Shown here in pieces: positions 17,480 through 55,366 of a stretch of DNA of 64,000 bases; position 1 is the first letter of the stretch, and each line of letters starts with the position of its first letter. Origin of the DNA: Candidatus Wolfebacteria bacterium GW2011_GWB1_47_1 (GTDB lineage Bacteria > Patescibacteriota > Minisyncoccia > UBA6257 > UBA9933); NCBI GenBank assembly GCA_001029635.1, contig CP011209.1, positions 16,983-80,982 on the forward strand, read 5' to 3'. Below the pieces are notes generated by a model. That model was not told the origin of the DNA, did not search any database, and worked only from the letters and a program-made list of their open reading frames with translations. The position numbers were made by a program, and so were the translations under genes.

Positions 17480-17542
17480 TGTCATTCCCGCGGATGCGGG
17501 AATCCAGATATTATATAGATTCCCGCCTCCATGGGAATGACA
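17480..17542 (-). repeat. hairpin repeat copy A (composite, two hairpins bounded by TGTCATTCCC / GGGAATGACA)
   Basis: TGTCATTCCCGC-GGAT-GCGGGAATCCAG ... GATTCCCGCCTCCATGGGAATGACA. The first half is the reverse complement of the CTGGATTCC-stem-GGAATGACA unit. Confidence 0.65.
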
Positions 17543-17551
17543 ATTTGATTT

Positions 17552-17585
17552 AAAATCCCCAGGGTTAGACCCTGGGGATTTTGCT
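17552..17585. terminator. bidirectional terminator
   Basis: AAAATCCCCAGGGT-TAG-ACCCTGGGGATTTTG between pth (+) and the minus-strand gene ending at 17624. Confidence 0.75.
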
Positions 17586-17623
17586 CAACTTTTTACTAAC
17601 CTCGCAGACCTGTCGGCCCGGGT

Positions 17624-18085
17624 CTACGCGAAGGCAGTGGTCCCGGCGAATAAGGCTCCCTGGTCAAAACTAGCGACAATGTCGCAGCCGGGGCTCTCCC
17701 GCCCTGCCGAATTAATGGTGCCGATGGCCCGTATCATGGTCCCGGTGGCGCCGGAGAATCTTTTCTCAATAGAAGACCCTGCCGATGCCGCAGCCACGGC
17801 CGTTATAGCCGGCACGTTAACTGTTGCCTCTCCCCTGCCGCCGATTGCGATGATGGCGGTGCCTTCGCTCTTGAAGTTCGCCAGGATGACGACCCCTACT
17901 TTGAGGGTCGATGCCTCCGTATGGTTGAGCTGCGCGCTCGCCATCGCCGGGCCGGACTCTCGCTGGTCCGCCTGCTTATAAGCGATCTCCTTCTTTGACC
18001 TCTGGTCGGTAGCCACCGACGCCCATGCCGCACTGGCGAAAGCAAGTGAAACCATAAAGCACAGTAGCATGAGTACTTTTCCCAT
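17624..18085 (-). CDS. secreted protein, possibly GlcG/HbpS-like (DUF336)
   Basis: ORF trimmed to M18 (MGKVLMLLCFMVSLAFASAAWA signal peptide) with GAGGAGG 7 nt upstream. The Gly/Ala-rich core AIGTINSAG resembles the DUF336 AIGVSGG motif. It is clearly more GC-rich than its surroundings. Confidence 0.45.
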   Translation of the reverse strand: MGKVLMLLCFMVSLAFASAAWASVATDQRSKKEIAYKQADQRESGPAMASAQLNHTEASTLKVGVVILANFKSEGTAIIAIGGRGEATVNVPAITAVAAASAGSSIEKRFSGATGTMIRAIGTINSAGRESPGCDIVASFDQGALFAGTTAFA

Positions 18086-18242
18086 AAATGCCTCCTCGCT
18101 TGATAACTTCTTCGGATAGGAATTTCTACAACCCAAAACCTCCTTTTATGTTAGTGGTCGCCTTGAGCGAGCGACTACTTTTGTAAAAGACCATAATTGA
18201 ATGTATCTAATACTACATAATACATATTCCCCGGTCAAGCAA

Positions 18243-18276
18243 ACAAAAGGCCCAGGTATCATACCTGGGCCTTTTC
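18243..18276 (-). terminator. terminator for the SDR-like gene
   Basis: GGCCCAGGTAT-C-ATACCTGGGCC flanked by A/T runs. Confidence 0.7.
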
Positions 18277-18293
18277 GCCGTTATGGCGAAATA

Positions 18294-18986
18294 CTACTTA
18301 GACGCAAAAAGGTTGAGATCCACATACCCCGTAGACATATTGATCGCTTGAGCGACTGCCTCGACGATCTCGGATACCGGGACCATCCGTTGCGGTAACA
18401 GTTCCGTCGCAGCCCCTTCATAAAAGGGGCTTCCTTCCACCGATCCCGGTGCGATGCGATGCACGTGGATGTTCCTCGGCGTGGTGAACAACGTATCCGC
18501 CCGCATCCATTTGACGAGCACCTCCTGGGCCGCTATGGAAGCGCCATACAATCTGTCGCTCAGATAATACGGAGGCTTCTCCGTTCCATCCACCGAACTG
18601 ATCACGACGATATGCCCGTCGTCGGTCATGTGCGGCACCAGCTTTGTCGCCACATGCAGAAGACCAAGACCATAAACTTCGGCGTTTTTCATGAATACCG
18701 CCGGGTCCGTATCTCGTTTTGACGTCTTCATCTCGGCCTTAAACCCTCCGGGCTCGCGATTGCCTGCCGCGTAGATGATGACGGAGGGGTTTATTTCGTT
18801 CTTCATTAACCACTCCGAGAAATCTTCTACGCTCGTTGCATCCGTTACGTCGAGTCGCAGATGTCCAAACCTCCCGCTCCTACTCGTGCCAAAGACCAGA
18901 CTTCTCCGGTCCTCTTCCTTAAGCAGTCGGTGTGTAATCGCGGACCCGATAAACCCGCCAGCCCCAATAACCAAAATGTGTTTCAT
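18294..18986 (-). CDS. NAD(P)-binding Rossmann-fold oxidoreductase (SDR/epimerase-like)
   Basis: 230 aa with an N-terminal VIGAGGFIGSAI dinucleotide-binding motif. Confidence 0.75.
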   Translation of the reverse strand: MKHILVIGAGGFIGSAITHRLLKEEDRRSLVFGTSRSGRFGHLRLDVTDATSVEDFSEWLMKNEINPSVIIYAAGNREPGGFKAEMKTSKRDTDPAVFMKNAEVYGLGLLHVATKLVPHMTDDGHIVVISSVDGTEKPPYYLSDRLYGASIAAQEVLVKWMRADTLFTTPRNIHVHRIAPGSVEGSPFYEGAATELLPQRMVPVSEIVEAVAQAINMSTGYVDLNLFASK

Positions 18987-19077
18987 CTTTTACCTCCCTT
19001 TCAATACGTAATGATACTGATTTGTTTATAAACCATATTATTATATTAGTCAAAAAAAGCCCTTGTATTCGGCCTTC

Positions 19078-19105
19078 TGTTATTCCTGCGGATACGGGAA
19101 TAACA
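19078..19105. repeat. hairpin repeat copy B (degenerate, fully palindromic flanks)
   Basis: TGTTATTCC-TGCGGATACG-GGAATAACA. It retains the GGAT loop of copy A. Confidence 0.5.
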
Positions 19106-19110
19106 ATTCA

Positions 19111-19138
19111 TAAAAAACCACTCACATATGAGTGACTT
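19111..19138 (-). terminator. terminator for the LCP gene
   Basis: On the minus strand: hairpin CACTCA..TGAGTG followed by TTTTTTAT. Confidence 0.65.
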
Positions 19139-20041
19139 CTACTTCTCTACCTTCGATTGAATGTAATTGCGCATATCTTCATATTTCCCCGAGCCAAGTC
19201 GTGGAAGTAGTACATACGCCATAGCATTGCCGTATTCCACTTCTGAGCTTTGCAAAATTCCCGTCTTGAAATCAACAACGATTGTATTAAGCCGCACTCC
19301 GCCAAACTGCCGCAACGTCGGCAACAGCTCCTTGAAGTCGATGTTTGTATTTAAATTTCCCAACTCCGGAGTCATCTTAAACAAGAATGCCGTCTTTTCC
19401 ATCGCACTCAATGTCTTAAATTCCTTCAAGACAGCACGGACCACCTCTTGCTGATTCTTTTCCCGGAAAAAGTCCCCCTCCGGCGCGTGTCTATTGCGAA
19501 CCAACCAGATCGCCTGGTCGCCATTGATATGGTTCTCTCCCGCCGGGATAGTGTATCCGCTCACGCCATCTACTACCTTGTCTTTCAATGTCAGGTCTAC
19601 ACCCCCCATCTCATCGACAACTTTCTTTAATATGTCGACGTTTACCACAACATATTTGTCCGTCTTAAGTCCCGTCATCTGTGGCAATGCCTCCATAAAC
19701 TCATTTAATTTCCCCCGTCGTAGCGCTTCATTTAGCTTAAACGACTCACCACCGAACGTTACAAATAGATCGCGAGGTAATGAGATCAGGTTCACCACGC
19801 CGAGCTTTGGACGATATTCGACCAAGATAATACTATCGGTCAGATCGGGCGCGTTACTCCATCCTAATGCCCTCCCCGTTTCTCCAAGCAATAAAAAACT
19901 AATCCGATCTTCGCTCATTGGGTTATCGTCGTTCTCCGCAAAGATTGATATCTTCTTTTGATAACTCATCAAAAATCCGACCCCCACGATTGCGGCGATT
20001 GTGACAAATACTTTTGCGATTGTTTTTACTTTTGATGGCAT
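19139..20041 (-). CDS. LytR-CpsA-Psr (LCP) family cell-envelope phosphotransferase
   Basis: LCP core (LISLPRDLFV...GYTIPAGENHINGDQAIWLVRNRH). Start trimmed to M44 (MPSKVKTIAKVFV, TM anchor), because the upstream 43 codons of the track ORF are a translation of a hairpin-repeat element. Confidence 0.85.
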   Translation of the reverse strand: MPSKVKTIAKVFVTIAAIVGVGFLMSYQKKISIFAENDDNPMSEDRISFLLLGETGRALGWSNAPDLTDSIILVEYRPKLGVVNLISLPRDLFVTFGGESFKLNEALRRGKLNEFMEALPQMTGLKTDKYVVVNVDILKKVVDEMGGVDLTLKDKVVDGVSGYTIPAGENHINGDQAIWLVRNRHAPEGDFFREKNQQEVVRAVLKEFKTLSAMEKTAFLFKMTPELGNLNTNIDFKELLPTLRQFGGVRLNTIVVDFKTGILQSSEVEYGNAMAYVLLPRLGSGKYEDMRNYIQSKVEK

Positions 20042-20070
20042 GCCGACTATTTTTATTGTTCCGTTTTTTT

Positions 20071-20169
20071 GGTTAACGCGTTGATGGGTTAACGCGTTAA
20101 ATCCCTCTGTCATCCTCCCCGAAGACGCGCATCTATATACTCTGGATTCCGGCCTTCGCCGGAATGACA
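20071..20169 (+). repeat. composite hairpin repeat copy C: two GTTAACGCGTT(R)A palindromes, a TGTCATCC..CGAAG arm, and CTGGATTCCGGC-CTTC-GCCGGAATGACA
   Basis: Lies between the true LCP start (20041) and the folD stop. It accounts for the artefactual N-terminal extension of the track ORF 19139..20170. Confidence 0.7.
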
Positions 20170-20179
20170 TAAGTGGCGC

Positions 20180-21004
20180 TTATTTATTCAAGATGTAGTA
20201 ATTTTCCATCAACTTTGCGATCAATATCGGGCCCGTTCCTCCGGGAGTTGGCGTGTAGAATGCATGAGGCACCAGAGATGCGGAATGAGGAATAAGAGCG
20301 TTATCGAAATCACCTTGGATCTTTCCTTCACTATCAAATGAATATCCAAAGTCTACGACACTTGCGAAATCCCTTATCATCTCCGGCGTAATGAGTCCCG
20401 CCTTGCCAACGCCGGTGATGATTATGTCCGCCCGTTTAAGTATTTCCAGGTCGCTCCCCTGGTCGAGTGCGTATACTTCCTTCGCCTTTTTCATCAACCA
20501 AAGCGCGATTGGCTTCCCTACTAATATGCCCAACCCCACAACTGCAACTTTTTTCTCGCGAAGGTCTATTCCCTTTCTTATGAACAATTCTTCGCACGTT
20601 GCCACCGATGGCGGCGCCACCGAACTCCTATTGTTATAGAATGCGCCGAGTGTCCGTTCGCTTAATGCATCCACATCCTTCTCTGGTGGGATCATATTTA
20701 AGACATAGTGCGCATTGCAATGCGCGGGCAGGGGTAGTTGCACTATTATTGCGCCGACGCGAGACATCCTAGCGATCCTCCCTATCTCTTTGCGTAATGA
20801 ATCGTTTGTACTTGTTTCCGGAAATCGATAGATGCGAAAGTCGAGACCCAACTCCTTGGCCACTTTTTCCTTCTGCTTCACAAAACTCTCGCTCGCCGCG
20901 TTGTCGCCGACCAAAACAGCCGCAAATATCTTGTGCGGTGCTGGCTCGCTCTTGAGTCGTTCAATTATTTCTTTCGCAATCCCCTTTCCGTCGATCGCCT
21001 TCAT
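20180..21004 (-). CDS. folD: bifunctional methylenetetrahydrofolate dehydrogenase/cyclohydrolase
   Basis: 274 aa with a typical FolD sequence (VLVGDNAASESFVKQKEK..., VVGLGILVGKPIALWL). Confidence 0.95.
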   Translation of the reverse strand: MKAIDGKGIAKEIIERLKSEPAPHKIFAAVLVGDNAASESFVKQKEKVAKELGLDFRIYRFPETSTNDSLRKEIGRIARMSRVGAIIVQLPLPAHCNAHYVLNMIPPEKDVDALSERTLGAFYNNRSSVAPPSVATCEELFIRKGIDLREKKVAVVGLGILVGKPIALWLMKKAKEVYALDQGSDLEILKRADIIITGVGKAGLITPEMIRDFASVVDFGYSFDSEGKIQGDFDNALIPHSASLVPHAFYTPTPGGTGPILIAKLMENYYILNK

Positions 21005-21110
21005 TACTGTATTGTATCAGATTTTATTCTTCTTACTATATAACGACGCTAAGCGTGGCTTGTTTCCGTATTAGTATTCCTTGATTCCCATCATTATTAT
21101 TCATAAGCCA

Positions 21111-21154
21111 TTGACATGATCACTTTAAACTAGTATTCAATAATCAGCTATTAT
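21111..21154 (+). promoter_or_regulatory. promoter and palindromic operator of paralog cassette 1
   Basis: TTGACA-N17-TATTCA followed directly by ATAATCAGCTATTAT. GAGGAGG SD 5-6 nt before the ATG at 21176. Confidence 0.6.
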
Positions 21155-21175
21155 CACCTGTTTTGAGGAGGCTCT

Positions 21176-21553
21176 ATGTTTAGCAAACTACGAGTGGATC
21201 CACACAAGAAATGCTTGGTCAACCTACCGGAAGGATGGGTCACGTTGTTCCTAGCAAGAACCCGCGAAAGTGCATTCCTTTTCGGAGCCGTTATTGGTCT
21301 CCGGGATAAATGCCTCCCGACAGACGAGGGCATACAACGCGAAATAGGAGGATTCGCTAAAGTTCTCCAGTTCACTGTGGAAAATATCCACGTCCTCGAT
21401 GTTTATCATGGTCATAAATACCCTCAAGGTGGAGGCCTGGTTGACGTTAACCTTCTAGACAAATCTGTGATCTGGGCAGGCGTAGACGAATGCGGGCGCA
21501 ACGAATTCTTCGGCGAACGCATTCCGCTTGCTGACGTTCTCGTTACCCTCTAA
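21176..21553 (+). CDS. hypothetical protein, member 1 of a tandem three-paralog family
   Basis: 125 aa. Shares GLP.GWVTLFLA, CLP, HGHKY..GGG and W...DECG...FGERI.P.DVLV.L with the two downstream paralogs. Confidence 0.65.
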   Translation: MFSKLRVDPHKKCLVNLPEGWVTLFLARTRESAFLFGAVIGLRDKCLPTDEGIQREIGGFAKVLQFTVENIHVLDVYHGHKYPQGGGLVDVNLLDKSVIWAGVDECGRNEFFGERIPLADVLVTL

Positions 21554-21572
21554 GCACTTCTCCGTTTCATCT

Positions 21573-21602
21573 GGAGCCCTCCTTCTCGGAGGGCTTTTTT
21601 TA
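21573..21602 (+). terminator. terminator of paralog 1
   Basis: GAGCCCTCC-TTCT-CGGAGGGCT followed by TTTTTTT, which runs directly into the next TTGACA. Confidence 0.8.
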
Positions 21603-21603
21603 T

Positions 21604-21647
21604 TGACATGCATTCGATAACTTGGTATTCAATAATCAGCTGTTATC
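21604..21647 (+). promoter_or_regulatory. promoter and palindromic operator of paralog cassette 2
   Basis: TTGACA-N17-TATTCA then ATAATCAGCTGTTAT. GGGGAG SD before the ATG at 21669. Confidence 0.6.
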
Positions 21648-21668
21648 AAACGTTTACGGGGAGACTTT

Positions 21669-22037
21669 ATGAACTTGCGCATCGTCAATGATACTATCGT
21701 CGGATTGCCTGACGGCAATACTGTTTTCTTCCTCGCCAAGGCGAACCTACACGGGGTTATCTACTGCTACGCCATATTCGGTCCCACCGCCACCTGTCTT
21801 CCAAAACCGGGAGAAACCTTTACCGAGCTGTTCGACGCAAAGGTTGCCGTCTTTCGCACCGATGGCAGCATGTACGCATTGTACTACGCACATCATGGGC
21901 ACAAATACGCCCTTGGTGGCGGTATGGTCGAGATTATCTCCGGCCGTTCCATCGTCTGGACCACTCCTGATGAATGCGGCTGTACGCGAATCTTCGGCGA
22001 GCGCATCCACCCTCGCGATATCCTTATCGCACTCTAG
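21669..22037 (+). CDS. hypothetical protein, paralog 2
   Basis: 122 aa with the same conserved blocks (FFLAKA, CLP, HHGHKY.LGGGM, TPDECG..RIFGERIHPRDILIAL). Confidence 0.65.
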   Translation: MNLRIVNDTIVGLPDGNTVFFLAKANLHGVIYCYAIFGPTATCLPKPGETFTELFDAKVAVFRTDGSMYALYYAHHGHKYALGGGMVEIISGRSIVWTTPDECGCTRIFGERIHPRDILIAL

Positions 22038-22040
22038 CTC

Positions 22041-22069
22041 AAAGCCCCGCGTATGCGGGGCTTTTTTGT
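22041..22069 (+). terminator. terminator of paralog 2
   Basis: AGCCCCGC-GTAT-GCGGGGCT followed by TTTTTTG. Confidence 0.8.
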
Positions 22070-22112
22070 TGACATCGTTTTTATAATCTGGTATTCAATA
22101 ATCAGCTATTAT
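22069..22112 (+). promoter_or_regulatory. promoter and palindromic operator of paralog cassette 3
   Basis: TTGACA-N17-TATTCA then ATAATCAGCTATTAT. GAGGAGG SD before the ATG at 22134. Confidence 0.6.
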
Positions 22113-22133
22113 AAAACGCTTTGAGGAGGGTAT

Positions 22134-22514
22134 ATGTTTAAGCACCTACGCGTAAACGAACAAACAAAGTGTATCGATGGCTTGCCGAAAGAATGGGTTA
22201 CTCTTTTCCTGGCAAAGGTCTCGGCTCGGTATGGTTTGCTCACCCATTGCGCCGTCATATGCCCCGACGTACTCCTCCCTGAAAAGAATCAGTTTTACTC
22301 CTCGATCGTAGGTGCTAAAGTCGTCCTATTTAACGGAAGAGCATTCAACTTGATCGACATCATCGAAGGATACAAGGTTCGGAAAGGCGGATGCCGCGTT
22401 CAGTATATAAAGAAAGGCCTCGTCGACTTTCCAGGAGAAATCCATAGTTATGACGGGGAGCATACCTTCGAAGATCGTCTTCTTCGCCCACAGGATGTTC
22501 TTGTCGCACTTTAA
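22134..22514 (+). CDS. hypothetical protein, paralog 3
   Basis: 126 aa. The most diverged copy (GLPKEWVTLFLAK retained, GHKY replaced by EGYKVRKGG), ending in QDVLVAL. Confidence 0.6.
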   Translation: MFKHLRVNEQTKCIDGLPKEWVTLFLAKVSARYGLLTHCAVICPDVLLPEKNQFYSSIVGAKVVLFNGRAFNLIDIIEGYKVRKGGCRVQYIKKGLVDFPGEIHSYDGEHTFEDRLLRPQDVLVAL

Positions 22515-22535
22515 TCTCCTCCCCGTTTCACCCAA

Positions 22536-22562
22536 AAGCCCCGCTTGCGCGGGGCCTTTTTG
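22536..22562 (+). terminator. terminator of paralog 3
   Basis: GCCCCGC-TTGC-GCGGGGC followed by CTTTTTG. Confidence 0.75.
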
Positions 22563-22774
22563 CTTCTCTTGATTTAATCTTGCATTTCATCTGCGAGCTG
22601 TAAAAATAGGGGGTTAAATAGGCGAAGAAAATCTCCTCAAAAATAGAGAATCTGGGTCCCGTCCGAAGTATGGGTGATTCTCGATTTTGTTAGAGATTTT
22701 TAAGCCTATTCCCTATTTTTAATTCGCTCGCGCTTTTTGGCCTACTTTTACTAAAAAAGTAGGGAAAAGAAAAG

Positions 22775-24469: not shown

Positions 24470-24512
24470 TGCATTGAGTGTATCGCAAACAGTTCAAAAA
24501 CTCAAAAAATCC

Positions 24513-26633: not shown

Positions 26634-26639
26634 CCCATG

Positions 26640-26981
26640 GGGATGGCAGGCTTTGACAAAAGCGGCTCGTTGAAAAACTGCAGACCGGTCGTCATACCGC
26701 AACCTGACAAAAACCAATAACTGCCAACAAAACAGCAGTTCCTGCATTCGCTTTCGCGTAATGCAGTGTCGCCCCACCCTAAGCTTGTACGGTGGACGCG
26801 GCATCAACCCACAAGCTGGTTCAGTATCCGTGCCGTAGGCGCCTGAACGAGATTCAAATCGGCAAACTCAGTGGCGATTCGTCGGATTTTCTGCTTCTGT
26901 TTTACACTAACCCGACTATGTCTGTAGACGTCTTTCAATAACTCTTTTGGACGGGAGTTCAATTCTCCTCATCTCCACCAT
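26640..26981 (+). ncRNA. ssrA: tmRNA (SsrA)
   Basis: Lies immediately 3' of smpB. 5' GGGGATG pairs with 3' CATCTCC-ACCA, giving a 7 bp acceptor stem with a G3:U70 wobble (Ala identity) plus an encoded CCA. T-arm GGGAG-TTCAATT-CTCCT. Internal tag ORF GCC AAC AAA ACA GCA GTT CCT GCA TTC GCT TTC GCG TAA encodes ANKTAVPAFAFA* (~26724-26762). Confidence 0.75.
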
Positions 26982-29825: not shown

Positions 29826-29879
29826 GGTTAACGCGTTAACGGGTTGGTAAATGCAGAAATACTGGATTCCGGAATGACA
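29826..29879 (+). repeat. composite hairpin repeat (copy D): GGTTAACGCGTTAAC palindrome plus CTGGATTCCGGAATGACA
   Basis: Shares both modules with copy C at 20071-20169. Confidence 0.7.
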
Positions 29880-33537: not shown

Positions 33538-33600
33538 TGTCATTCCGGCCTCCCACTACCATGCAAATGATGTGGGGATGTACTTTCGCAGGGATGACGC
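33538..33600. repeat. TGTCAT-terminated inverted-repeat element (copy H)
   Basis: TGTCATTCCGGCC...CGCAGGGATGACG with an internal hairpin CCCAC..GTGGG, in the tuf upstream region. Related to copy E. Confidence 0.5.
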
Positions 33601-33615
33601 TCGAGGCGACGTTCA

Positions 33616-33969
33616 TCAAGCAATGAACTCAATCGTTGCCATTGCTGAACCGTCTCGCATACGTGCTTCCGCAGACTTTACCACACGGAGATATCCACCT
33701 CGTCGCGCCTTATATTTCGGTGCAACTTCGTAGAAGATCTTTTCCGCGGCCTTCTTCGGAAGTCGGGCGATGAGCAAGCGCAAGCTTGCCGTATCCTGCT
33801 TCTTTGCGAGTGTGACCATCTTTTCCACTTCCGGCCTCAGCTCTTTCGCTTTTGCTTCCGTAGTTGTGATCTTCTCTTCAAGAATCAGGTTATTCGCCAG
33901 AGTCTTCATGAGCGCTGTGCGTTGACCAGTCTTCCTATGAAATTTTCGTCCTTTCGCTAAGTGTCTCAT
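33616..33969 (-). CDS. rplQ: 50S ribosomal protein L17
   Basis: 117 aa, MRHLAKGRKFHRKTGQRTALMKTLANNLI..., canonical L17. Confidence 0.95.
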   Translation of the reverse strand: MRHLAKGRKFHRKTGQRTALMKTLANNLILEEKITTTEAKAKELRPEVEKMVTLAKKQDTASLRLLIARLPKKAAEKIFYEVAPKYKARRGGYLRVVKSAEARMRDGSAMATIEFIA

Positions 33970-37043: not shown

Positions 37044-37149
37044 TGTCATTCCGAGCGGAGCGGTACTCCGCGTAGTCGAGGAATCTGCAGTCTATACACT
37101 TCCCTGCTACAGATCCTTCGACCCCACTCCGTTGCGCTCAGGATGACAA
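37044..37149. repeat. TGTCAT-terminated inverted-repeat element (copy E), MITE-like
   Basis: ~106 bp with 14 bp terminal inverted repeats TGTCATTCCGAGCG / CGCTCAGGATGACA (2 mismatches) and an internal GCGGAG-CGGTAC-TCCGC hairpin. It lies in the 490 bp gap upstream of infA. Confidence 0.6.
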
Positions 37150-37620: not shown

Positions 37621-37658
37621 CTGGATTCCGTCCGTTCCCTAGCAGTCCGGAATGACGG
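37621..37658 (+). repeat. CTGGATTCCG..CGGAATGAC hairpin repeat (copy F)
   Basis: CTGGATTCCG-TCCGTTCCCTAGCAGTC-CGGAATGACGG. Same flanks as copy D, with a 17 nt loop insertion. Confidence 0.6.
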
Positions 37659-42273: not shown

Positions 42274-45255
42274 TTACTTCCACTCATCTACTTTGTAGAC
42301 ATATGTCTCTGTGTCTATGTCCGTATGGCTAATAGTCAGAATATCGTATCCGGTAGTATTTCGTATCAGTGCATAATACGCCCCAGACCCAGGCCAATAC
42401 CCTTCACGCACCTGTCCGGTCGTAGAAGAGTATACGGAGACTCGGTAAAACCTGTGGCTTTTCGAAGCAGCTTGAATATTAGCTATACCAGATACTTCCG
42501 ACCCACTATTTAAGGTGATAGATGATTCGGCAATAGTTACCCAAGTTTTACCCCCCAAGTTAGCAGCGGTTGTCTGTGTTGTCCCATCAGGGAATGTGAA
42601 TCCTCCACTCGAAGACCGAATCTGTCCCGCGACATCCAATTTATAGGACGGACTTGTATTCCCTATACCAACATTACCCGAGAAATACGTATTACCACTC
42701 GTTCCTCCCGAAATAGTCAGATATGCCGCATTATCGTTATGAATTCCTCCTCGTGCTTGAAGCGCTGCTGCCATATATACCGTCCCGCTGTTAAAGTAGG
42801 CGCCTCCCGGAGCAATAAAGTAGGAGGATGCGCTTATCGTCGGGTTTGCCACGTTGAAGGTAAGATTTCCTCCCAAGGTAATTGCCCCTGTATTGTATTG
42901 ATTTCCGCTATTATCCCAATACGACTGCCAGCTACCCGCTCCAGTAAGAAATCCAATTACATTGGAATTGGCGTGAATGGACTTTGCTCCCGACGTTGAT
43001 TCATCGTCGCGGAGATAGATGCGCGTCGACGCTAAAGGTCCAAATATGACATCCCCAACCACATCCAACTTCGCTCCTGGAGCTGATGTACCGATGCCGA
43101 CGTTGCCGGCGTTGTAATACGCAACTGTGCCACTTAATGAGAATGGCGACGCACCAGCAGGGCCGGTTGCTCCGGTAGGTCCTGCGGGGCCGGTCAAACC
43201 CGTCGCACCGGTAGCGCCCGTTGCACCAGTCGCGCCTGCGGGGCCGGCCGGCCAGCTCGCATAGCATGTTCCGCTAATACATAATGAAGATCCGTTAATC
43301 GAACCGTTTACATCAAGCTTGTATCCTGGAGTGGTCTTGCCGATACCGACGTTGCCGCCGTTAAAAAGAACACTTCCCGAGTTTGGAATATTGTTTGTTG
43401 CTGACGTATTGACGGATCCAATGACTGTTCCCCCTGCTCCACCGCAGGTGCCTGAAGCATTCCCTGTACAGATCGACCCGTATGAATAGATAGACGAACC
43501 CGCATTAAAGGTTGGTGCATTCACGCTTGCCCAATTCGAGCTTGATCCGCCATTGGCAACAATATTCCCGGCAGTCCAGATGCCGGTACCCAAGGCGGTC
43601 TGTGTAACGCCATTATTCATGACAAGGAGCTGATGATTGAGTCCCGCCTTTGATTGCGGGTTATTCCCAACCGAACCATAGTCGGGGTTGTATGACCAGC
43701 CAAGACCATACAATGTTCCATAGTTTGTCGTTCCACCTCCCGCAGGCAAAACATATGCGGGACCCATGGACCAAACTGCTTGCGTTTTGGTTGGATCGTA
43801 TGTGCCGATCGTACCGAGCCCTACATTACTAAAGGTTAGGTTACCACTCATTGTATCGCCCGTTTTGAGCACTTTAGTGTCATCGGCACTACTTGGCCAC
43901 GCAGTCTTATTAACGCCCCCCAGCGTAAGACCTCCCGTGCCGACGGTGATCGCAGGGCCTCCGCCTGCATTATTGAAATAGCCGGCAGGGCTTGTTGCGC
44001 TGTTGTTTTCTGCCTTGACGCCGCCACCGAACGTGGTGAGGCGATAGCTTACGTCGGGATTTGCCGTACCAATCCCAACATTGCCGGAAGTATTCGCAGT
44101 CAATAAATCTCCCGCAGAGGCATTCCACAAGCGAAATGTTACACCACTGGCATACCAAAGCCATGAAGATGAATCGTTCTTGAATCCGATCGCGGGGTAG
44201 TTATTCTTGAAGATACCGATACCTTGCGTTCCCGCCATTTGGGAAGTTGGATCTGTCGTACCGATACCGATATTGCCGCCATTCAAATAAGAGACGCCAC
44301 TCTGCGCCAAATGATACGCATTGGAATAGTTGGTCAATGCGCCATCTATGGCTGTTGTTTTATTCAAATAGAATGAGGGTCGATCGGTCTGGAAATGCGC
44401 ATAGCCTGCGTTCATCGCGCCAATATCAAGCACTCCGCTTCCGCTGTCGATGCGCAATGCGCCAGCCTGATCGCCTCGCACTGATCCGTTCACATGCAGC
44501 TTTACGGCAGGCGCGGATGTGCCGATGCCGACATTGCCCGTAACATACAGATTATTCGCAACACGTACGTGGTTGTCGCCATTGCCTACGGAAAGGATCT
44601 CCGTTGCGCCAGCGCGAGATGGATGGTCGTTATAAAAACGGGTTCCGCCATAGCTATAATATCCACCGATTTTAACACCGGTATGATAGCCAAAGATCAG
44701 ATCAGGATACGGGAACGCCCACGCGCCTCCCTCCTGATAGCCGAACTGATAGGCACGGTCGCCGGTGAGACCCGAATCAAATCCAACCCCGTTCGGGGTC
44801 ATAGTCCCACTCAGGGTTAGGTTACGCAATGCGGTAATATCATTGCCTGACATATTCAAGGCAGCGGTTGCGGTATGGTTGCCGAGATTGTCTCCACTCC
44901 CCCATGTTGTGCGATTCACACCTCCCAACGTAAGACCTCCCGTGCCGACGGTAATGGCAGGGCCTCCGCCTGCATTATTGAAATAGCCGGCAGGCTGGGT
45001 TGCGCTGTTGTTTTCTGCCTTAATACCGCCACCGCTGGTGGTGAGGCGATAGCTTGCATCAGGCGTTGCGGTGCCGATGCCGACATTGCCACCGGATACA
45101 TTTATCGCGTTAATACTGAGTGGCGGATTACTGGACGGGTTTGTCCAGGCAAATCCTTGTTGCGCAAATACAACGAGTCCGAAAGCAAAAATACTGCCGG
45201 TAATGAGCAATAAAAATTTATAGGGAGAAATCTTCATTACTAATAAGTATATCAT
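42274..45255 (-). CDS. large secreted repetitive surface protein with a collagen-like (G-A/P-T)n segment and tail-fibre-like Gly/Asn/Thr-rich repeats
   Basis: 993 aa. Signal peptide (LLLITGSIFAFGLVVFAQQ). The motif GNVGIGT.SP..KL.V.G recurs at least five times. The 39 aa block AENNSATxPAGYFNNAGGGPAITVGTGGLTLGGVN appears twice. Collagen-like run GPAGATGATGATGATGLTGPAGPTGATGPAG. Confidence 0.8.
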   Translation of the reverse strand: MIYLLVMKISPYKFLLLITGSIFAFGLVVFAQQGFAWTNPSSNPPLSINAINVSGGNVGIGTATPDASYRLTTSGGGIKAENNSATQPAGYFNNAGGGPAITVGTGGLTLGGVNRTTWGSGDNLGNHTATAALNMSGNDITALRNLTLSGTMTPNGVGFDSGLTGDRAYQFGYQEGGAWAFPYPDLIFGYHTGVKIGGYYSYGGTRFYNDHPSRAGATEILSVGNGDNHVRVANNLYVTGNVGIGTSAPAVKLHVNGSVRGDQAGALRIDSGSGVLDIGAMNAGYAHFQTDRPSFYLNKTTAIDGALTNYSNAYHLAQSGVSYLNGGNIGIGTTDPTSQMAGTQGIGIFKNNYPAIGFKNDSSSWLWYASGVTFRLWNASAGDLLTANTSGNVGIGTANPDVSYRLTTFGGGVKAENNSATSPAGYFNNAGGGPAITVGTGGLTLGGVNKTAWPSSADDTKVLKTGDTMSGNLTFSNVGLGTIGTYDPTKTQAVWSMGPAYVLPAGGGTTNYGTLYGLGWSYNPDYGSVGNNPQSKAGLNHQLLVMNNGVTQTALGTGIWTAGNIVANGGSSSNWASVNAPTFNAGSSIYSYGSICTGNASGTCGGAGGTVIGSVNTSATNNIPNSGSVLFNGGNVGIGKTTPGYKLDVNGSINGSSLCISGTCYASWPAGPAGATGATGATGATGLTGPAGPTGATGPAGASPFSLSGTVAYYNAGNVGIGTSAPGAKLDVVGDVIFGPLASTRIYLRDDESTSGAKSIHANSNVIGFLTGAGSWQSYWDNSGNQYNTGAITLGGNLTFNVANPTISASSYFIAPGGAYFNSGTVYMAAALQARGGIHNDNAAYLTISGGTSGNTYFSGNVGIGNTSPSYKLDVAGQIRSSSGGFTFPDGTTQTTAANLGGKTWVTIAESSITLNSGSEVSGIANIQAASKSHRFYRVSVYSSTTGQVREGYWPGSGAYYALIRNTTGYDILTISHTDIDTETYVYKVDEWK
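43150..43255 (-). repeat. in-frame collagen-like GXT/GXA triplet repeat (GC-rich microsatellite-like tract)
   Basis: GGn-CCn/GCn-ACn codon reiteration encoding (G-A-T)/(G-P-A) triplets. Confidence 0.7.
43913..44090 (-). repeat. intragenic ~180 bp direct repeat, copy 1
   Basis: Near-identical to 44925-45103. Both encode ...TPPxVRPPVPTV(I/M)AGPPPALLK on the antisense frame, which is why the track shows two spurious plus-strand ORFs. Confidence 0.75.
44925..45103 (-). repeat. intragenic ~180 bp direct repeat, copy 2
   Basis: See copy 1. The repeats are ~1 kb apart within the same gene. Confidence 0.75.
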
Positions 45256-47220: not shown

Positions 47221-47248
47221 AATTGTATTAAAAATATATACGCTCTGT

Positions 47249-47521: not shown

Positions 47522-47577
47522 TTTGTAACGAGGTACGCCGCAAAGAAAAACCACCGATCTGTGGTTTTTCAAATGAC

Positions 47578-49905: not shown

Positions 49906-49906
49906 A

Positions 49907-50827
49907 TCAGAACCAGTCTTTCTTCGAGAAGATGGCGAACGCAATGGCAGATACGACAACGATCAACCCCATGACGCCCAAAAATGCCATCGGATTACTC
50001 TGCATCGGAAGAGGCACATTCATACCAAACACGCTTGCAATCATCGTCGGCAAGGTGAGCAAAATCGTCACACCCGCCAAGAATTTCATGGTCTTATTTA
50101 AGTCGTTCGTCAAAATGGTCGAATACGCCTCGCGAATGTTCGAAATAGCCTTGATGCTCGTATTGCAGATGTCGACAGCCTCTTCGTTACTCAGCATAAG
50201 GTCCTCCACAACATCGCTATCCTCCTTGATGAACGCAAGATACTGCTTCCCCAAAAGGGTCTTGTAGATCTTCCCTGCCGGGACCAATGAAGTAACGAAA
50301 TCGTTCATGACACGCTCTCGGTCAACGAACGCAATAATATCCTGGTTCGTGATCTTCGCAACGTTCGATTGCTTCACGCGAATGTCCTTATTAATGGCAT
50401 GCAGGTAGCTTTGGTACAGCAAATTGATCTTGATAAAGAACAGTAACAAAAACTTTTCCTTCTGTGTGGTCGCGAATTCAATCTTCCCGGATAGGAAGTC
50501 ATCGAAGATGGCCCTGCGTTCGCGCGCGACCGTGACAATAAAGTCTTCCGCGACGACAAAAAGAATCGGTGCGGTCTGGATAACCCCACGCTCTTCGTAC
50601 GGGAACCGCAAAAAGATATACATCATACTGCCCTCGACCTCAAAACGAGGAACCTCAAACGGGTCGAGTGCATCCGAAATATGCCCATGCTCAAGCTTAA
50701 GGTCGTCGGTCAGGAATTCCATTTCATGTTCGGATGGGTCGGTCACAAAGACCCAGCTCCCCTTCTGAACCACGCTACCCTTTTGAATATGAGCATCCTT
50801 TAATGATTTTCGGTAGATTTCGATCAT
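49907..50827 (-). CDS. corA: CorA-family Mg2+/Co2+ transporter
   Basis: Two C-terminal TM helices with a GMN-type motif (VFGMNVP). Start trimmed to M26. Confidence 0.8.
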   Translation of the reverse strand: MIEIYRKSLKDAHIQKGSVVQKGSWVFVTDPSEHEMEFLTDDLKLEHGHISDALDPFEVPRFEVEGSMMYIFLRFPYEERGVIQTAPILFVVAEDFIVTVARERRAIFDDFLSGKIEFATTQKEKFLLLFFIKINLLYQSYLHAINKDIRVKQSNVAKITNQDIIAFVDRERVMNDFVTSLVPAGKIYKTLLGKQYLAFIKEDSDVVEDLMLSNEEAVDICNTSIKAISNIREAYSTILTNDLNKTMKFLAGVTILLTLPTMIASVFGMNVPLPMQSNPMAFLGVMGLIVVVSAIAFAIFSKKDWF

Positions 50828-51007
50828 AGTAGTTCTATTTCCCCCCTCCTCCGTCTTGCTGTTGCGTATCTTTTTAGGAGACTGCGAAGATCGGCGGAGC
50901 AAGCACGAACCGAATATTCAACAGAATATTCGTGTGCTCCTAAAAAGACACGACAAAAGCAAATACTTCCCTTTAATTATGCCCTTAATTGCGGTAACAT
51001 TCAATCA

Positions 51008-52474
51008 ATGTTAAAACGGGTAAGATCACTTCTTCTGGAGAACAAAACAACCAGGCAAACAATAGCCAAAAACACCTTCTGGCTCTTTTTTGGTAACATC
51101 AGTTCGCGCCTCATCAAGGCGGGCATCATCATCTACGCGGCCCGCATTCTGGGCGCCGAAGACTGGGGCGTCTTTTCATATGCTCTTTCCCTCGCGGCCT
51201 TCTTCACCGTCTTCACCGATTTTGGGATGAGCACGGTCATCACACGCGAATCAGCAAAAGATCTTTCTGTGCAAGAAAAATACTTTGCAACTTCACTAGT
51301 ACTCAAGATAGCCATGACGATCGTATCGATCGCCGTGTTTCTCGCCCTCGCCCCGCTTATCGTAAAGCAAAAAGCGGTCATGGCACTGCTCCCCATCATC
51401 ATCCTGCTCGTAAGCCTCGATGGCATGCGCGACTTTGCCGCCTCGCTATCCCGCGCATGGGAGAAGATGGAGATCGAAGCCGCGATCCAAATCCTTACCA
51501 ATATCGCCATAGTCATCGGCGGATTTGTTGCGCTGTACTATTATCAGACCTCGTACGCACTCTCCGTAGGCTACACGATCGGGGTTGGTATTGGTATGCT
51601 CGCAGCATTTTATCCATTCCACCACTATTTCAAGAATCTCAAGCAAACCTTCGATCCGAAGCTCATCAAGCCGATCCTGCACGCAAGTTGGCCGATCGGC
51701 ATGCTCGGTCTCATGACGGCGACCATGCTCAACACCGACACAATTATGATCGGATGGTTCCGTGACATTTCAGAAGTTGGTTACTATTCGGCCGGTCAGC
51801 GCATTGCGCAGATCATATTCATGGTACCCGCATTACTGACAACGGCCCTCTTCCCCTCATTTGCAAAGTTCGCATTCGACAAAGAGCGCTTTGGCAAAGC
51901 AATCGAAAAGTCGCTCCTCATCCTCCTTATGGTCGGCATCCCCATGGCGATTGGCGGAGCCTTCCTTGCTAAGGACATCATGTACATTGTATACGGCGAT
52001 CAATATCTCGCCGGTTCGCTCGCTTTTGCAATCATGTCGCTCACCTTCATCTCGGGGTTCATAGCCCCAGTCTTAGGCAATGCGATATTCGCGCTTAACA
52101 AAGAAAAGCAATTATTCACCTATATCGCCTTGGGGATCGGCGGGAACTTCCTATTTAATCTGATTTTTATTCCCGTCTTTGGTATAGCAGGCGCAGCACT
52201 TTCGACACTCCTTAACCAAACCATCATCACGATATATTTATCGCATAAGCTCAAAAAAGAAGTGACGATCTCCATTCGCAAAAAGCTTGCAAATATTCTT
52301 ACGGCGTCATTCATCTTATTTGTCGCGGTATTTGGTCTATCACTCCTGGAGTTCAATGCGATTGTGATTATCATCGCCGCCGCAGCAGCATATGGATACG
52401 TCCTCCATCTCCTGCAAGAACCAATTTTTGTAGAAGTTGCCAATCCAATATTCCGCCGCATAAAAAGCACATAA
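51008..52474 (+). CDS. oligosaccharide flippase (Wzx/MOP superfamily)
   Basis: 488 aa with ~12-14 TM helices. N-terminal LLENKTTRQTIAKNTFWLFFGNISSRLIKAGIIIYAARILG is typical of polysaccharide-biosynthesis (PST) proteins. Confidence 0.85.
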   Translation: MLKRVRSLLLENKTTRQTIAKNTFWLFFGNISSRLIKAGIIIYAARILGAEDWGVFSYALSLAAFFTVFTDFGMSTVITRESAKDLSVQEKYFATSLVLKIAMTIVSIAVFLALAPLIVKQKAVMALLPIIILLVSLDGMRDFAASLSRAWEKMEIEAAIQILTNIAIVIGGFVALYYYQTSYALSVGYTIGVGIGMLAAFYPFHHYFKNLKQTFDPKLIKPILHASWPIGMLGLMTATMLNTDTIMIGWFRDISEVGYYSAGQRIAQIIFMVPALLTTALFPSFAKFAFDKERFGKAIEKSLLILLMVGIPMAIGGAFLAKDIMYIVYGDQYLAGSLAFAIMSLTFISGFIAPVLGNAIFALNKEKQLFTYIALGIGGNFLFNLIFIPVFGIAGAALSTLLNQTIITIYLSHKLKKEVTISIRKKLANILTASFILFVAVFGLSLLEFNAIVIIIAAAAAYGYVLHLLQEPIFVEVANPIFRRIKST

Positions 52475-52566
52475 CGGCGCATTGTCATGCTAAACCTATA
52501 TTGTTATTCTGACGAATATGGAAATCCAATATTTTTCTTAATTCTCTTATCGCATATCTCTATTCT

Positions 52567-53700
52567 ATGAACATCCTCATTGTGATAACCAAAGGAGAAG
52601 TAGGCGGAGCGCAGATATTTGTTTCCACGCTCGCAAAAAACCTGCATCGGCAAGGACACAAAGTCACTGTCGCCTATGGAGAAGGAGACTACCTGCGCGA
52701 TACGCTAGCGCCGGAAGGTATTGCGCTAGTGCGCTTCCACTGGCTTAGGCGCACGACCAACCTACTGTCCAACATCCGCTTTGGCCGGGAATTGCGTGCA
52801 TACCTCGCAACACGTCATTTTGACGTGATCCATTTCAACAGTTCAAATGCGCTCTTCGGCGTACTAGCCGCGCGCTTGATGCGCTCACATGCAAAAATCA
52901 TATTCACGCTCCATGGCCTTTCGGTCGTCGATCCAAACTACGCCGCATCGAACATCGCAAAACGCGCATATCGAGCATTATTTAAACTATTACTAATGCT
53001 TGTCGATGAGCCCGTATTTGTAAGTAAATTAAATTTCGAATACGCAAAGAAGATCGGGCTGATCAAACGCGGTACAGTAATCCCCAATGGCATCAACACG
53101 GAATCACTGGAATTTCTACCCCGTGAAGAAGCACGCATCACCTTGAGCGAAAAAATGGGGATAACCACCGCAGACTACTACATCATTGGATCCATTGGCC
53201 GCCTTGCCTATCCAAAGAATTATGAGTTTCTTATTAGAACATTTCCAAAAATCGTGAAGGAGATCCCAAACGCAATAGCCATTATTATTGGTGAAGGGCC
53301 AAAACGCGAACTATATGAACAAATGATCGAACAAAAAGAACTGACTAATAGGGTATTTCTCATTGGCGAACTCCCGGATGCCTATCGGTATATCAAAGCA
53401 TTTGATCTCTTCACACTCCCCTCAGAATACGAAGGGATGTCCATGACGCTCATCGAAGCAATGTTTGCAGAAGTGCCCATCCTCGCATCACGCGTTGGAG
53501 GTACACCAGAATTGCTCAATGACCCTACTCAGACCTACGCGCTCAATGACGTGGATAACTTTATCAAAAAATTGAACGAGATCCGCTCTAAGGAAGGTTT
53601 TACCTATACTACGGAACAAAGGAACCATCACTCCCAATTCAAAGGCGAAGCGATGGCAGAAAAATATATCAAGGTTTACGGGGAAACCCATTTTTCTTGA
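52567..53700 (+). CDS. glycosyltransferase family 4
   Basis: 377 aa. N-terminus ILIVITKGEVGGAQIFV, C-terminal GT4 motif EGMSMTLIEAMFAEVPILASRVGGTPELL. Confidence 0.9.
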   Translation: MNILIVITKGEVGGAQIFVSTLAKNLHRQGHKVTVAYGEGDYLRDTLAPEGIALVRFHWLRRTTNLLSNIRFGRELRAYLATRHFDVIHFNSSNALFGVLAARLMRSHAKIIFTLHGLSVVDPNYAASNIAKRAYRALFKLLLMLVDEPVFVSKLNFEYAKKIGLIKRGTVIPNGINTESLEFLPREEARITLSEKMGITTADYYIIGSIGRLAYPKNYEFLIRTFPKIVKEIPNAIAIIIGEGPKRELYEQMIEQKELTNRVFLIGELPDAYRYIKAFDLFTLPSEYEGMSMTLIEAMFAEVPILASRVGGTPELLNDPTQTYALNDVDNFIKKLNEIRSKEGFTYTTEQRNHHSQFKGEAMAEKYIKVYGETHFS

Positions 53701-54490
53701 TCAGGGCATACGGAGAAGATAATCCGAGTACGCCATACCAAACCAGTCGCGCAACTCCGCGCACCAATGCCCGCATCACATACGGGTATTGTTTTTTATA
53801 ATTCCAGATCAACCCCAATGTGATCAGATTCATCTTCCACTTCTTTTTGGCACTCACTGAGCCCGCACGCTGAGTCCAATTGATGCAAAATGTATCGAGA
53901 TTGGCGAACTTTCCAACAGCACCCATGCGTAGCCATAAATCATAGTCTTCAGCCAATCGCATATCCTTATATCCACCCAACTGCTGAAATACATCCTTGC
54001 GATAGAGTGCTCCCGAATGAGCGAAGCAATTGCGCCCCAAAATACTGGCACGAATTTGCTCATCATTCTTCGGATACCGTTGTTCAAATAAAATATTCTC
54101 CAATTCATCAACAACTCGCACGCAACCAGATCCAACAAGTACATATTCGGGGTGCGCTTCCAAAAAACCAACCTGCTCGCGTAACTTATTTGTATCTGGC
54201 CATTCGTCATCATCATCAATGACCGCAACGTAACCACCCTTCGCCTGGGCAACTGCAAAATTACGCGCCCTCCCCGGCCCCTCATTCTTCGCTCGATAAA
54301 AATACCTCACCCGCGCATCCCTACTCGCAATCGCATGTACGATATTTGCAGTGCCGTCGGTCGATGCATCATCGACCACAACAACCTCAAAATCTACACC
54401 CTCCTGTCGCAAAACACTGCGGATTACACGCTCGATGAATCGCTCTCCGTTTTTAGTTGCAATGATAACGCTGATCATAATCGTATCCAT
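53669..54490 (-). CDS. glycosyltransferase family 2
   Basis: ISVIIATKNGERFIERVIRSVLRQ and DDASTDGT (DxD). The start is M17 or M21 of the track ORF, abutting the stop of the upstream fucosyltransferase gene. Confidence 0.85.
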   Translation of the reverse strand: MDTIMISVIIATKNGERFIERVIRSVLRQEGVDFEVVVVDDASTDGTANIVHAIASRDARVRYFYRAKNEGPGRARNFAVAQAKGGYVAVIDDDDEWPDTNKLREQVGFLEAHPEYVLVGSGCVRVVDELENILFEQRYPKNDEQIRASILGRNCFAHSGALYRKDVFQQLGGYKDMRLAEDYDLWLRMGAVGKFANLDTFCINWTQRAGSVSAKKKWKMNLITLGLIWNYKKQYPYVMRALVRGVARLVWYGVLGLSSPYALIKKNGFPRKP

Positions 54491-55332
54491 TCGCTTGGCA
54501 CCGCATCGCTCGTATCGACGCGCGAATCGCTCACCCATTGCCTCGGAGCAATGACGATCTTATGGGGATTAGCATTAAGCCAAGCGCCCCACCAACTGAA
54601 GCTACTATTGGCAATGATGGCGTGCTTGCACTTGCTCATCAATATAAGCTCTTCATAATCTCTAATACCGCCATCGGAAACATATGTCGCGTTAGGGATT
54701 TCAATATGCTCTTTTACCCACTCGATATCATCAGAGAACACAAAAAATTTTGGCAGGTCAATGCGCTTCAAGATCGTGTCGATTGCAGCTCGGTAATATG
54801 CAGGCGAACAAATGCCATGGAATGCGCTCGCATTTTTATTATTCACATAATCACCTCGGCGAACATGTAAAGAAACCGCATTGGATTGCTCGATATCTTC
54901 CAAGACAGCATGCGCATCTCGACCCATAACATCCTTTAATTGAAATTCGTTACGAACAATAAATTCAATATCCTTGAAATAGCGCTCGCTCTGAAAGAAT
55001 CCTTCCATATACACGTCTCCCGTCTGCTCCAATATCTTTGGGTTAAATACATAACTCGTGATCGGCCGAAATTTATTAATGATCTTTTTGATCAACCTGC
55101 CAATAAGCGAATCACACATACGCCCCACCTCCTCCGCAGTGGCCGCTTGCGCAGAAATGGCAAAGTTGCTCAATGCGTACTGTCGCACAGTATCACTCGC
55201 AGGAATGCCACCAGGATCATACCAGCTCAAATCAAGACGCAATATATCATTGTTCCTTTCTGCCAAATGCTTCGCGCACGCATATTGGAACATCTGGTTC
55301 CCTAGCCCACCTTTAAGTTTGATGATAATCAT
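54475..55332 (-). CDS. alpha-1,2-fucosyltransferase (GT11 family)
   Basis: Starts at M12 of the track ORF: MIIIKLKGGLGNQMFQYACAKHLAE, the GT11 signature (GGLGNQMFQYA). The upstream 11 codons of the track ORF translate hairpin repeat copy G. Confidence 0.8.
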   Translation of the reverse strand: MIIIKLKGGLGNQMFQYACAKHLAERNNDILRLDLSWYDPGGIPASDTVRQYALSNFAISAQAATAEEVGRMCDSLIGRLIKKIINKFRPITSYVFNPKILEQTGDVYMEGFFQSERYFKDIEFIVRNEFQLKDVMGRDAHAVLEDIEQSNAVSLHVRRGDYVNNKNASAFHGICSPAYYRAAIDTILKRIDLPKFFVFSDDIEWVKEHIEIPNATYVSDGGIRDYEELILMSKCKHAIIANSSFSWWGAWLNANPHKIVIAPRQWVSDSRVDTSDAVPSEWIRL

Positions 55333-55338
55333 ATATCT

Positions 55339-55366
55339 GTCATCCCGGCGAAAGCCGGGATCCACT
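55339..55366 (-). repeat. hairpin repeat copy G with compensatory stem changes
   Basis: Reverse complement reads (C)TGGATCCCGGC-TTTC-GCCGGGATGACA, i.e. ATTCCGGC/GCCGGAAT changed to ATCCCGGC/GCCGGGAT. In the 5' UTR of the GT11 gene. Confidence 0.65.

Follow-up and report, generated by a model that had tools for sequence, protein, structure and literature searches.

CGTC-tagged hairpin repeats of the Neisseria dRS3/NTS kind in a Candidatus Wolfebacteria chromosome, candidate sites of an Ssn-type nuclease

Short hairpin repeats are dispersed between the genes of a 64-kb stretch (hereafter the window) of the chromosome of Candidatus Wolfebacteria bacterium GW2011_GWB1_47_1, a member of the candidate phyla radiation (CPR, or Patescibacteria) from Rifle groundwater with a genome of ~984 kb and a GC content of 45.6%. 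We are confident that these hairpins belong to the CGTC-tagged family of repetitive extragenic palindromes (REPs) known as CGTC-1, i.e. the dRS3/NTS repeat of Neisseria and the Ssn-related motif. The best overall explanation, which we consider fairly probable, is that they are CGTC-1/NTS copies serving, in a CPR chromosome, as a site for an Ssn-type nuclease at the level of single-stranded DNA (ssDNA). That such an enzyme acts on the repeat in this very organism is a tentative proposal, drawn by analogy with Neisseria. An initial annotation of the window had described a dispersed, oriented and intergenic hairpin family of the REP type or of the type of MITEs (miniature inverted-repeat transposable elements), and this reading is supported; it had found no named family to which the repeat could be assigned, and the family is in fact already catalogued, both as CGTC-1 (PMC3733652) and as NTS/SRM (PMC11893778).

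Results

The window hairpins share the architecture of CGTC-1 and NTS

CGTC-tagged REPs were defined by an unpaired CGTC tag (often TGTC or CCTC), stems of 8-9 bp beginning A-T, T-A, loops of 4-5 nt and a CCA tail (Di Nocera, De Gregorio & Rocco, 2013; PMC3733652). Their dimers are predominantly arranged with the tags outside ('HH'), TT dimers being rare and HT dimers negligible. According to the same study, they occur in five phyla with no dedicated transposase associated; CGTC-1 equals the dRS3 repeat of Neisseria, and CGTC-1 and CGTC-4 correspond to RPE-6 and RPE-4 of Rickettsia. The dRS3 repeat has since been extended to an oriented 28-nt sequence, the NTS (CGTCATTCCCGCGMAVGCGGGAATCYRG), which is bound and cut, as ssDNA only, by SsnA, a 94-aa single-domain GIY-YIG protein (PMC11893778, 2025). 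Binding depends critically on the C that follows the palindrome, and cutting on the three bases that precede it; transformation is reduced by NTS in donor DNA, and 'Ssn-related motifs' (SRM) border the SsnA homologues of many phyla (PMC11893778). Marks of this system are a gene for such a small GIY-YIG protein (cd10448) in the genome that carries the repeat, and a cleavage that is strand-specific and confined to the ssDNA form of the hairpin, sparing dsDNA and RNA.

The sequence available to us comprised the window and the 8.8 kb adjoining its right end, together ~73 kb of the ~984-kb genome. The window unit is oriented and consists of a TGTC or CGTC tag, an 8-bp stem starting with AT, a 4-nt loop and a CCA tail (family consensus TGTCATTCCCGCGAAAGCGGGAATCCAG). 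Copies were scored with a covariance model (CM) built from 139 instances of ~120 foreign genomes only, in order to avoid circularity, and run on the window with filters off; their folds were computed as ssDNA and expressed as z-scores against shuffled sequences. All eight loci claimed by the initial annotation (A to H) are present, with G shifted by one base (55338-55365):

A-left, 17480-17507, plus strand: intact CGTC-1 unit TGTC-ATTCCCGC-GGAT-GCGGGAAT-CCAG, left half of a tags-outside dimer.
A-right, 17515-17542, minus strand: partly decayed unit that keeps a 6-bp stem, ATTCCC/GGGAAT, the inner stem being lost.
A dimer, 17480-17542: A-left and A-right, 63 nt, tags outside.
B, 19078-19105, no strand assigned: symmetric variant TGTTATTCCTGC-GGAT-ACGGGAATAACA, tagged at both ends.
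C, 20142-20169, minus strand: intact unit TGTCATTCCGGCGAAGGCCGGAATCCAG, directly 3' of the FolD stop codon.
C partner (C-left), 20108-20137, plus strand: decayed unit (TGTCATCCTCCCCGAAGACGCGCATC...) that forms with C a 62-nt tags-outside dimer (20108-20169).
D, 29862-29879, minus strand: unit with its inner 10 nt deleted (TGTCATTCC joined to GGAATCCAG); ten inner CM positions are absent and it no longer folds.
H, 33538-33600, no strand assigned: decayed 63-nt tags-outside dimer (TGTCATTCC...GGGATGACG), fold z -0.9.
E, 37044-37149, no strand assigned: tags-outside dimer, 106 nt long, that belongs to a second subfamily (TGTCATYCYGAGC...TCGARGGATCTG) and carries an insertion in each loop.
F, 37621-37658, minus strand: CGTC-tagged unit that keeps only ATTCCG/CGGAAT around a 17-nt loop (decayed or carrying an insertion).
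G, 55338-55365, plus strand: intact unit TGTCATCCCGGCGAAAGCCGGGATCCAC with a compensated C-G pair, 5 nt upstream of the GT11 start codon.

The tag is TGTC in A-left, A-right, C, D, G, E and the left half of H, and CGTC in F and the right half of H; the 3' tail reads CCAG in A-left, C, D and F and CCAC in G. Simple counts already set these sequences apart from chance. TGTCATYCC occurs seven times in the window for 1.02 expected (reached in 0 of 100 shuffles), and the Neisseria dRS3 pattern ATTCCC-N8-GGGAAT twice for 0 expected, both halves of A fitting it exactly. The 28-nt Neisseria NTS consensus is matched by A-left and C with three mismatches (25/28; 0 expected), and the published SRM search string matches C and G (0.15 expected in shuffles).

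The foreign-trained CM recovered C (45.7 bits, E 1.4e-10), G (42.9 bits, E 8.6e-10) and A-left (40.6 bits, E 3.9e-9) with high scores, followed by D (24.2 bits, E 2e-4) and A-right (20.7 bits, E 2e-3). F (14.3 bits, E 0.13) and the left half of E (11.5 bits, E 0.78) are marginal, and only the core of B is recognized (7.8 bits). Five copies are thus significant (C, G, A-left, D and A-right) and two marginal (F and E), B and H being derived or decayed relatives. Two more copies lie beyond the right end of the window, at 5312-5345 (28.3 bits) and 7379-7412 (46.5 bits) of the adjoining sequence (L264), both in intergenic spacers within the adjacent polysaccharide gene cluster. In total, seven copies reach E < 0.01 in ~73 kb, all between called genes, i.e. 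~1 per 10 kb. Family membership is supported by the NTS, dRS3 and SRM matches, by the CM hits with E ≤ 2e-3, and by agreement with the structural description of CGTC-tagged REPs (PMC3733652).

As ssDNA, the minimum-energy folds of A-left (-9.0 kcal/mol, z -4.2), C (-8.9 kcal/mol, z -4.75) and G (-9.8 kcal/mol, z -5.3) are exactly the 8-bp stem with its 4-nt loop. B forms a symmetric hairpin of 10-11 bp (-7.1 kcal/mol, z -5.9), and the A dimer (-21.1 kcal/mol, z -7.3) and E (-21.0 kcal/mol, z -4.0) also fold. A-right, D, F and H do not fold better than their shuffles; for F, the minimum-energy fold differs from the canonical hairpin (z -1.3). In the window, the family thus comprises three units that are intact, a single symmetric derivative, two dimers able to fold and several copies in decay.

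An Rfam scan of the window returned, at gathering thresholds, only a tmRNA and a LOOT RNA, no family reaching its threshold for the repeat. With permissive E-values the repeat region gave sub-threshold matches only, and these, such as WsnRNA46 (27 bits for a gathering threshold of 65) and His_leader (31 for 49), were rejected as chance-level hairpin matches.

Stem pairing is maintained by compensatory changes across phyla

The pattern TGTCATYCC-N8-12-GGRATCC was scanned against one genome per species and gave at least 120 stretches from at least 120 different assemblies (public loci compared with the window carry L-numbers). The phyla represented number more than 25, among them Proteobacteria, Bacteroidota, Chloroflexota, Planctomycetota, Nitrospirota, Verrucomicrobiota, Spirochaetota and Elusimicrobiota, along with many CPR lineages (Doudna-, Uhr-, Nomura-, Magasanik-, Gracili- and Saccharibacteria) and a single bin of Nanoarchaeota. 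Note that the match count alone is no evidence, because we estimate, by our own reckoning rather than with a tool, several thousand chance matches of this pattern in 596 Gb; the evidence from the scan lies in the pairing at positions that the pattern left free.

In the alignment of the 139 foreign instances, 95.0% of the stem cells are paired, compared to 79.9% in shuffles, and 130 stem cells carry double changes for 32.7 in shuffles (0 of 500 reaching the observed number). Sliding the 3' partner by one column, as a control, lowers pairing to only 37-54%. The stem pair written Y/R in the pattern is T-A in 110 instances, C-G in 26 and mismatched in 4, and the three inner pairs retain complementarity in 83-85 of the 88 instances of canonical length, with CG, GC, TA and AT as alternatives. 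Complementarity is therefore upheld by compensatory changes. The paired change reported for copy G in the initial annotation (ATTCC/GGAAT to ATCCC/GGGAT) is as described, and represents one case of the T-A/C-G alternation that runs across phyla. The unpaired tag and tail are conserved as much as the stem.

Two observations concern where the motif occurs. A 3.8-kb contig of a Nanoarchaeota metagenome-assembled genome (L087), binned as a DPANN archaeon, holds three CGTC units, at 1505-1588 and 2724-2758. Either the motif crosses domains here, or the contig comes from CPR or another bacterium and was misbinned. Among the matches listed, the motif is frequent in IMG/VR viral contigs (six copies in L219, four in L215), which may be phage genomes or the host flanks of proviruses.

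Units form tags-outside dimers and turn over between relatives

The larger TGTCAT-ended elements, two of which (E and H) the initial annotation had set apart as such, are inverted, tags-outside dimers of the unit (63 nt in A, 62 in C with its decayed partner, 63 in H and 106 in E). In the 120 foreign loci listed, neighbouring units are arranged tags-outside in 54 cases, tags-inside in 9 and in tandem in 3, with gaps mostly of 10-40 nt, which reproduces the published tags-outside bias. Dimer E belongs to a subfamily with a tandem G.A in the stem (CCGAGC...TCGAGG) and a CTG tail, also found without the insertions in L046, L055, L069 and L107 and in the related locus L131 at 4954-5023 and 14489-14523.

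B probably results from the collapse of a tags-outside dimer by deletion between two ATTCC direct repeats, as presumably does a comparable symmetric copy at 1109-1134 of L131. D appears to be a unit that lost its inner 10 nt by deletion between CCGG direct repeats; its counterpart in L132 is intact and stands at the same place upstream of the NUDIX gene, with a shared CCAGTATT flank.

We compared the window with three Wolfebacteria relatives (L131, L132 and L133) that have 73-78% ArgRS identity and conserved gene order, the window ArgRS being identical to AKM77784.1. The sites compare as follows:

FolD-LCP spacer: window, dimer (C); L131, an 85-aa GIY-YIG gene; L132, intact dimer at 14181-14240; L133, a 97-nt GTCAT-ended dimer.
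Upstream of NUDIX: window, internally deleted copy (D); L131, symmetric copy; L132, intact copy; L133, none.
L17-EF-Tu spacer: window, H; L131, not covered; L132, none; L133, none.
After the ArgRS stop: window, none; L131, none; L132, a copy between the stop and the terminator; L133, none.

At shared sites the stems differ by compensated changes (CCGGC/GCCGG vs CCCGC/GCGGG). From these comparisons some copies appear old and shared, and others lineage-specific gains or losses. Except at assembly gaps, the strain-level loci (L001-L003 and L129) match the window at 100% identity and are uninformative on mobility; a 21.7-kb portion of the window is 100% identical to contig LCNK01000007.1 of assembly GCA_001003095.1.

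H directly precedes the -35 box (TTGACG) in the conserved promoter of EF-Tu (TTGACG ... TATATATT). Where the window has H (33538-33620 compared), L132 (3239-3300) and L133 (5098-5160) carry an unrelated hairpin after L17, and H may have replaced, or may now stand in for, the hairpin of these relatives.

A small GIY-YIG nuclease as a candidate partner of the repeat

Two foreign loci support a link between repeat and enzyme, since their units adjoin GIY-YIG genes. L040 encodes a GIY-YIG protein of 94 aa that shares Y6, Y17 and E64 with SsnA, and units stand on both sides of it; in L013 a unit lies 22 nt from the GIY-YIG gene. Nicking by an Ssn-type enzyme is suggested by the identity of the window units with the Neisseria NTS, including the positions reported for binding and cutting. 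We read the unit as a DNA-level element: once single-stranded, it forms the 8-bp hairpin that begins A-T, T-A and closes on a 4-nt loop, and the unpaired 5' (C/T)GTC tag and 3' CCA tail give this hairpin an orientation. We propose that a small Ssn-family nuclease, with GIY-YIG as its single domain, recognizes the hairpin and nicks it in the ssDNA state; the gene for this enzyme would lie in another part of the genome, or the enzyme would be supplied horizontally. The interaction could explain how the repeat spreads as well as whatever effect it has on ssDNA that enters the cell or is being replicated, and copies escaping the enzyme would decay by slipped deletions (D and B) or point changes (A-right, C-left, F and H).

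Several points weigh against this proposal. No GIY-YIG gene was found in the 64-kb window with a regular expression, with tblastn using four foreign GIY-YIG proteins or with a hidden Markov model built from 63, nor in the gene calls of the next 8.8 kb, and an NTS-ssn-NTS arrangement was not seen in the ~73 kb. None of the best 120 homologues of the relatives' GIY-YIG protein lies on the 984,447-bp source chromosome, which excludes a close orthologue only. The small GIY-YIG gene common among Wolfebacteria relatives (L131 and L134) has no CGTC units at its sides but a 19-nt inverted repeat of its own (ACCCCGTTAGATGAAAATT / AATTTTCTATCAAACGGGGT), and its product is equidistant from the Ssn-like protein of L040 and from a putatively YhbQ-like protein of L026. 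NCBIfam holds no specific model for small GIY-YIG proteins. A, C and G lie inside transcribed spacers, where an effect at the RNA level is possible. Finally, that Ssn mobilizes the repeats is only a hypothesis even in the study that describes the enzyme (PMC11893778).

In L131 (10620-10980) and L134 (2975-3320), the 85-aa GIY-YIG gene and its 19-nt inverted repeat form a compact cassette with a conserved 3' flank of ~75 nt that reaches the start codon of the next gene. In L131 it sits in the spacer between FolD and LCP, at the very place that a CGTC dimer holds in the window, L132 and L133. The cassette protein has hundreds of homologues in CPR, many on contigs of 0.5-1.3 kb, which suggests a multi-copy mobile cassette. 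Remnants of this cassette were sought in the window and none was found.

A bolder version, which we regard as quite unlikely, is that this ~1-Mb genome maintains in the order of 100 NTS/CGTC-1 hairpins, and is still gaining them, without an Ssn-clade nuclease of its own. If true, some other machinery would propagate or exploit the repeats. They could for instance be processing or discrimination marks on ssDNA imported by competence; CPR bacteria are thought to depend on their competence apparatus. Alternatively, the CPR-specific GIY-YIG cassette may at times take the same spacers.

RNA-level elements, passive relics and transposase-driven repeats

Stem covariation would also be expected if selection acted on an RNA hairpin, so the repeat might be a cis element of the mRNA, whether a 3'-UTR stabilizer, a processing site or an attenuator. 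The location of several copies fits this: A comes after the stop codon of Pth (17472) and ahead of a distinct terminator hairpin (~17550-17581), C right after the FolD stop and G 5 nt upstream of a start codon, and the additional copy of L132 sits between the ArgRS stop and the terminator; moreover, many REPs lie downstream of open reading frames (ORFs) and are plausibly transcribed (PMC3733652). However, the orientation of the copies relative to transcription is mixed, C being read tag-to-tail on the mRNA and G in reverse, and B and D come after a terminator and before the next promoter. Among the stem cells that are not Watson-Crick pairs, G-T is not favoured over A-C. An RNA stabilizer has no need of a conserved unpaired tag and tail, which the reported DNA recognition by Ssn requires, and no copy is followed by a T-run. 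On balance we consider an RNA-level role unlikely.

The copies could instead be relics that persist passively, or could serve as docking sites in another DNA transaction (as the integration target of a Piv/IS110-type recombinase, which is reported for dRS3 of Neisseria, or through binding by a nucleoid protein or gyrase), with no dedicated nuclease in this lineage. More than half of the copies are decayed and no enzyme gene was found in the ~73 kb; dRS3 is cited as a phage recombinase target (PMC11893778), and the motif is frequent in viral contigs. Against this stand the three perfectly intact units and the lineage-specific new copies (H, and the post-ArgRS copy of L132), the latter arguing for recent activity; in addition, no recombinase or prophage junction lies beside any window copy. 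This alternative, too, seems unlikely to us.

Still less do we expect a classical REP/REPIN moved by RAYT (a Y1 transposase of the IS200/IS605 type) or a MITE moved by an IS transposase via TGTCAT terminal inverted repeats; we judge this very unlikely. The 62-63 nt tags-outside dimers (A, C and H) do resemble REPINs or MITEs, with long hairpin folds, and their presence differs between relatives. But the tag is CGTC/TGTC and not GTAG, CGTC repeats come with no transposase (PMC3733652), no Y1, IS110 or other transposase domain is found among the window genes or the relatives' loci, and A, B, C, E and H show no target-site duplication at their borders.

The initial annotation had suggested terminator or recombination functions. 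The former is dismissed, as no unit is followed by a T-run and separate canonical terminators adjoin A, B, D and E (a terminator scan, run over 17000-21000 only, picked out a site beside B but none of the repeat units); a role in recombination, or at the DNA level, comes closest to the known biology of the family.

Other features of the window

Gene calls and Pfam searches over nearly the whole window give ordinary housekeeping, cell-envelope and glycosylation genes, with a type I restriction island at the left end. The 14-bp palindrome GTTAACGCGTTAAC, which the initial annotation had linked to copies C and D, is present, perfect at 29827 (29827-29840) and with one and two mismatches at 20088 and 20072 (20072-20101), 30-60 nt upstream of the LCP and NUDIX genes. 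Its membership of the hairpin family was rejected, as neither the three related Wolfebacteria loci nor any of the 120 foreign loci contains it, and its link with C and D is a coincidence of this genome; it resembles an operator or a restriction-type site specific to this genome.

Repeats read through by gene callers had been said to produce spurious N-terminal extensions of the LCP and GT11 proteins. This applies to the LCP (LytR_cpsA_psr) gene (19139-20170, minus strand), where the public call runs through copy C and gives 343 aa for 300 aa in the three relatives; a true start near 20040 fits. For GT11 the extension exists only in the mechanical ORF, the public annotation beginning at a downstream ATG. 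Such repeats create false N-terminal extensions and seed spurious small ORFs across databases.

The LOOT RNA (Rfam RF03000) lies at 10775-10893 on the minus strand (77 bits for a gathering threshold of 46.4), at the edge of a region with genes for type I restriction-modification, for an AAA_13 protein and for SocA_Panacea. In public contigs this region runs on into a serine recombinase (L007), so it may be a mobile island. The tmRNA gene (26639-26980, plus strand, 118 bits) adjoins smpB and is ordinary. A 993-aa protein (42274-45255, minus strand) has a weak collagen-repeat hit only; three public contigs (L004-L006; two from JGI, one from ENA) end within its gene, at ~44.2-45.0 kb, which suggests internal repeats or population variation breaking assemblies.

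Discussion

The closest known system is CGTC-1 itself. The window units share its tag, 8-bp stem, 4-nt loop and CCA tail and its mostly HH dimers (published spacers 0-100 nt), as well as an intergenic location between unidirectional or convergent genes and heterogeneous stems with compensated changes. They differ in their host, a CPR genome of less than 1 Mb, and the scan sample extends the family to more than 25 phylum-level groups. With the Neisseria NTS, A-left and C agree at 25 of 28 positions, the critical C after the palindrome and the GTCAT upstream bases being kept. In contrast to Neisseria, no ssn gene and no NTS-ssn-NTS unit occurs in the ~73 kb available here, and copies are spaced at ~1 per 10 kb without the large clusters of that genus.

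GTAG REPs and REPINs with RAYT are likewise short tagged hairpins, intergenic, with inverted dimers as the likely replicative unit and a history of birth and decay, but their tag is GTAG rather than (C/T)GTC, and the window repeats have no Y1 transposase association. RPE-6 and RPE-4 of Rickettsia and CGTC-4 of Wolbachia belong to the same CGTC superfamily (PMC3733652) and likewise reside in small, reduced genomes; many copies in Rickettsia are intragenic, whereas those seen here are all intergenic. What is new is therefore the host, a CPR bacterium with a sub-megabase genome, the kind of element being already known and no new mechanism coming to light. The occurrence of a Neisseria-like 28-mer in CPR and in many other phyla widens the range of organisms in which Ssn ssDNA nucleases and their sites can be studied.

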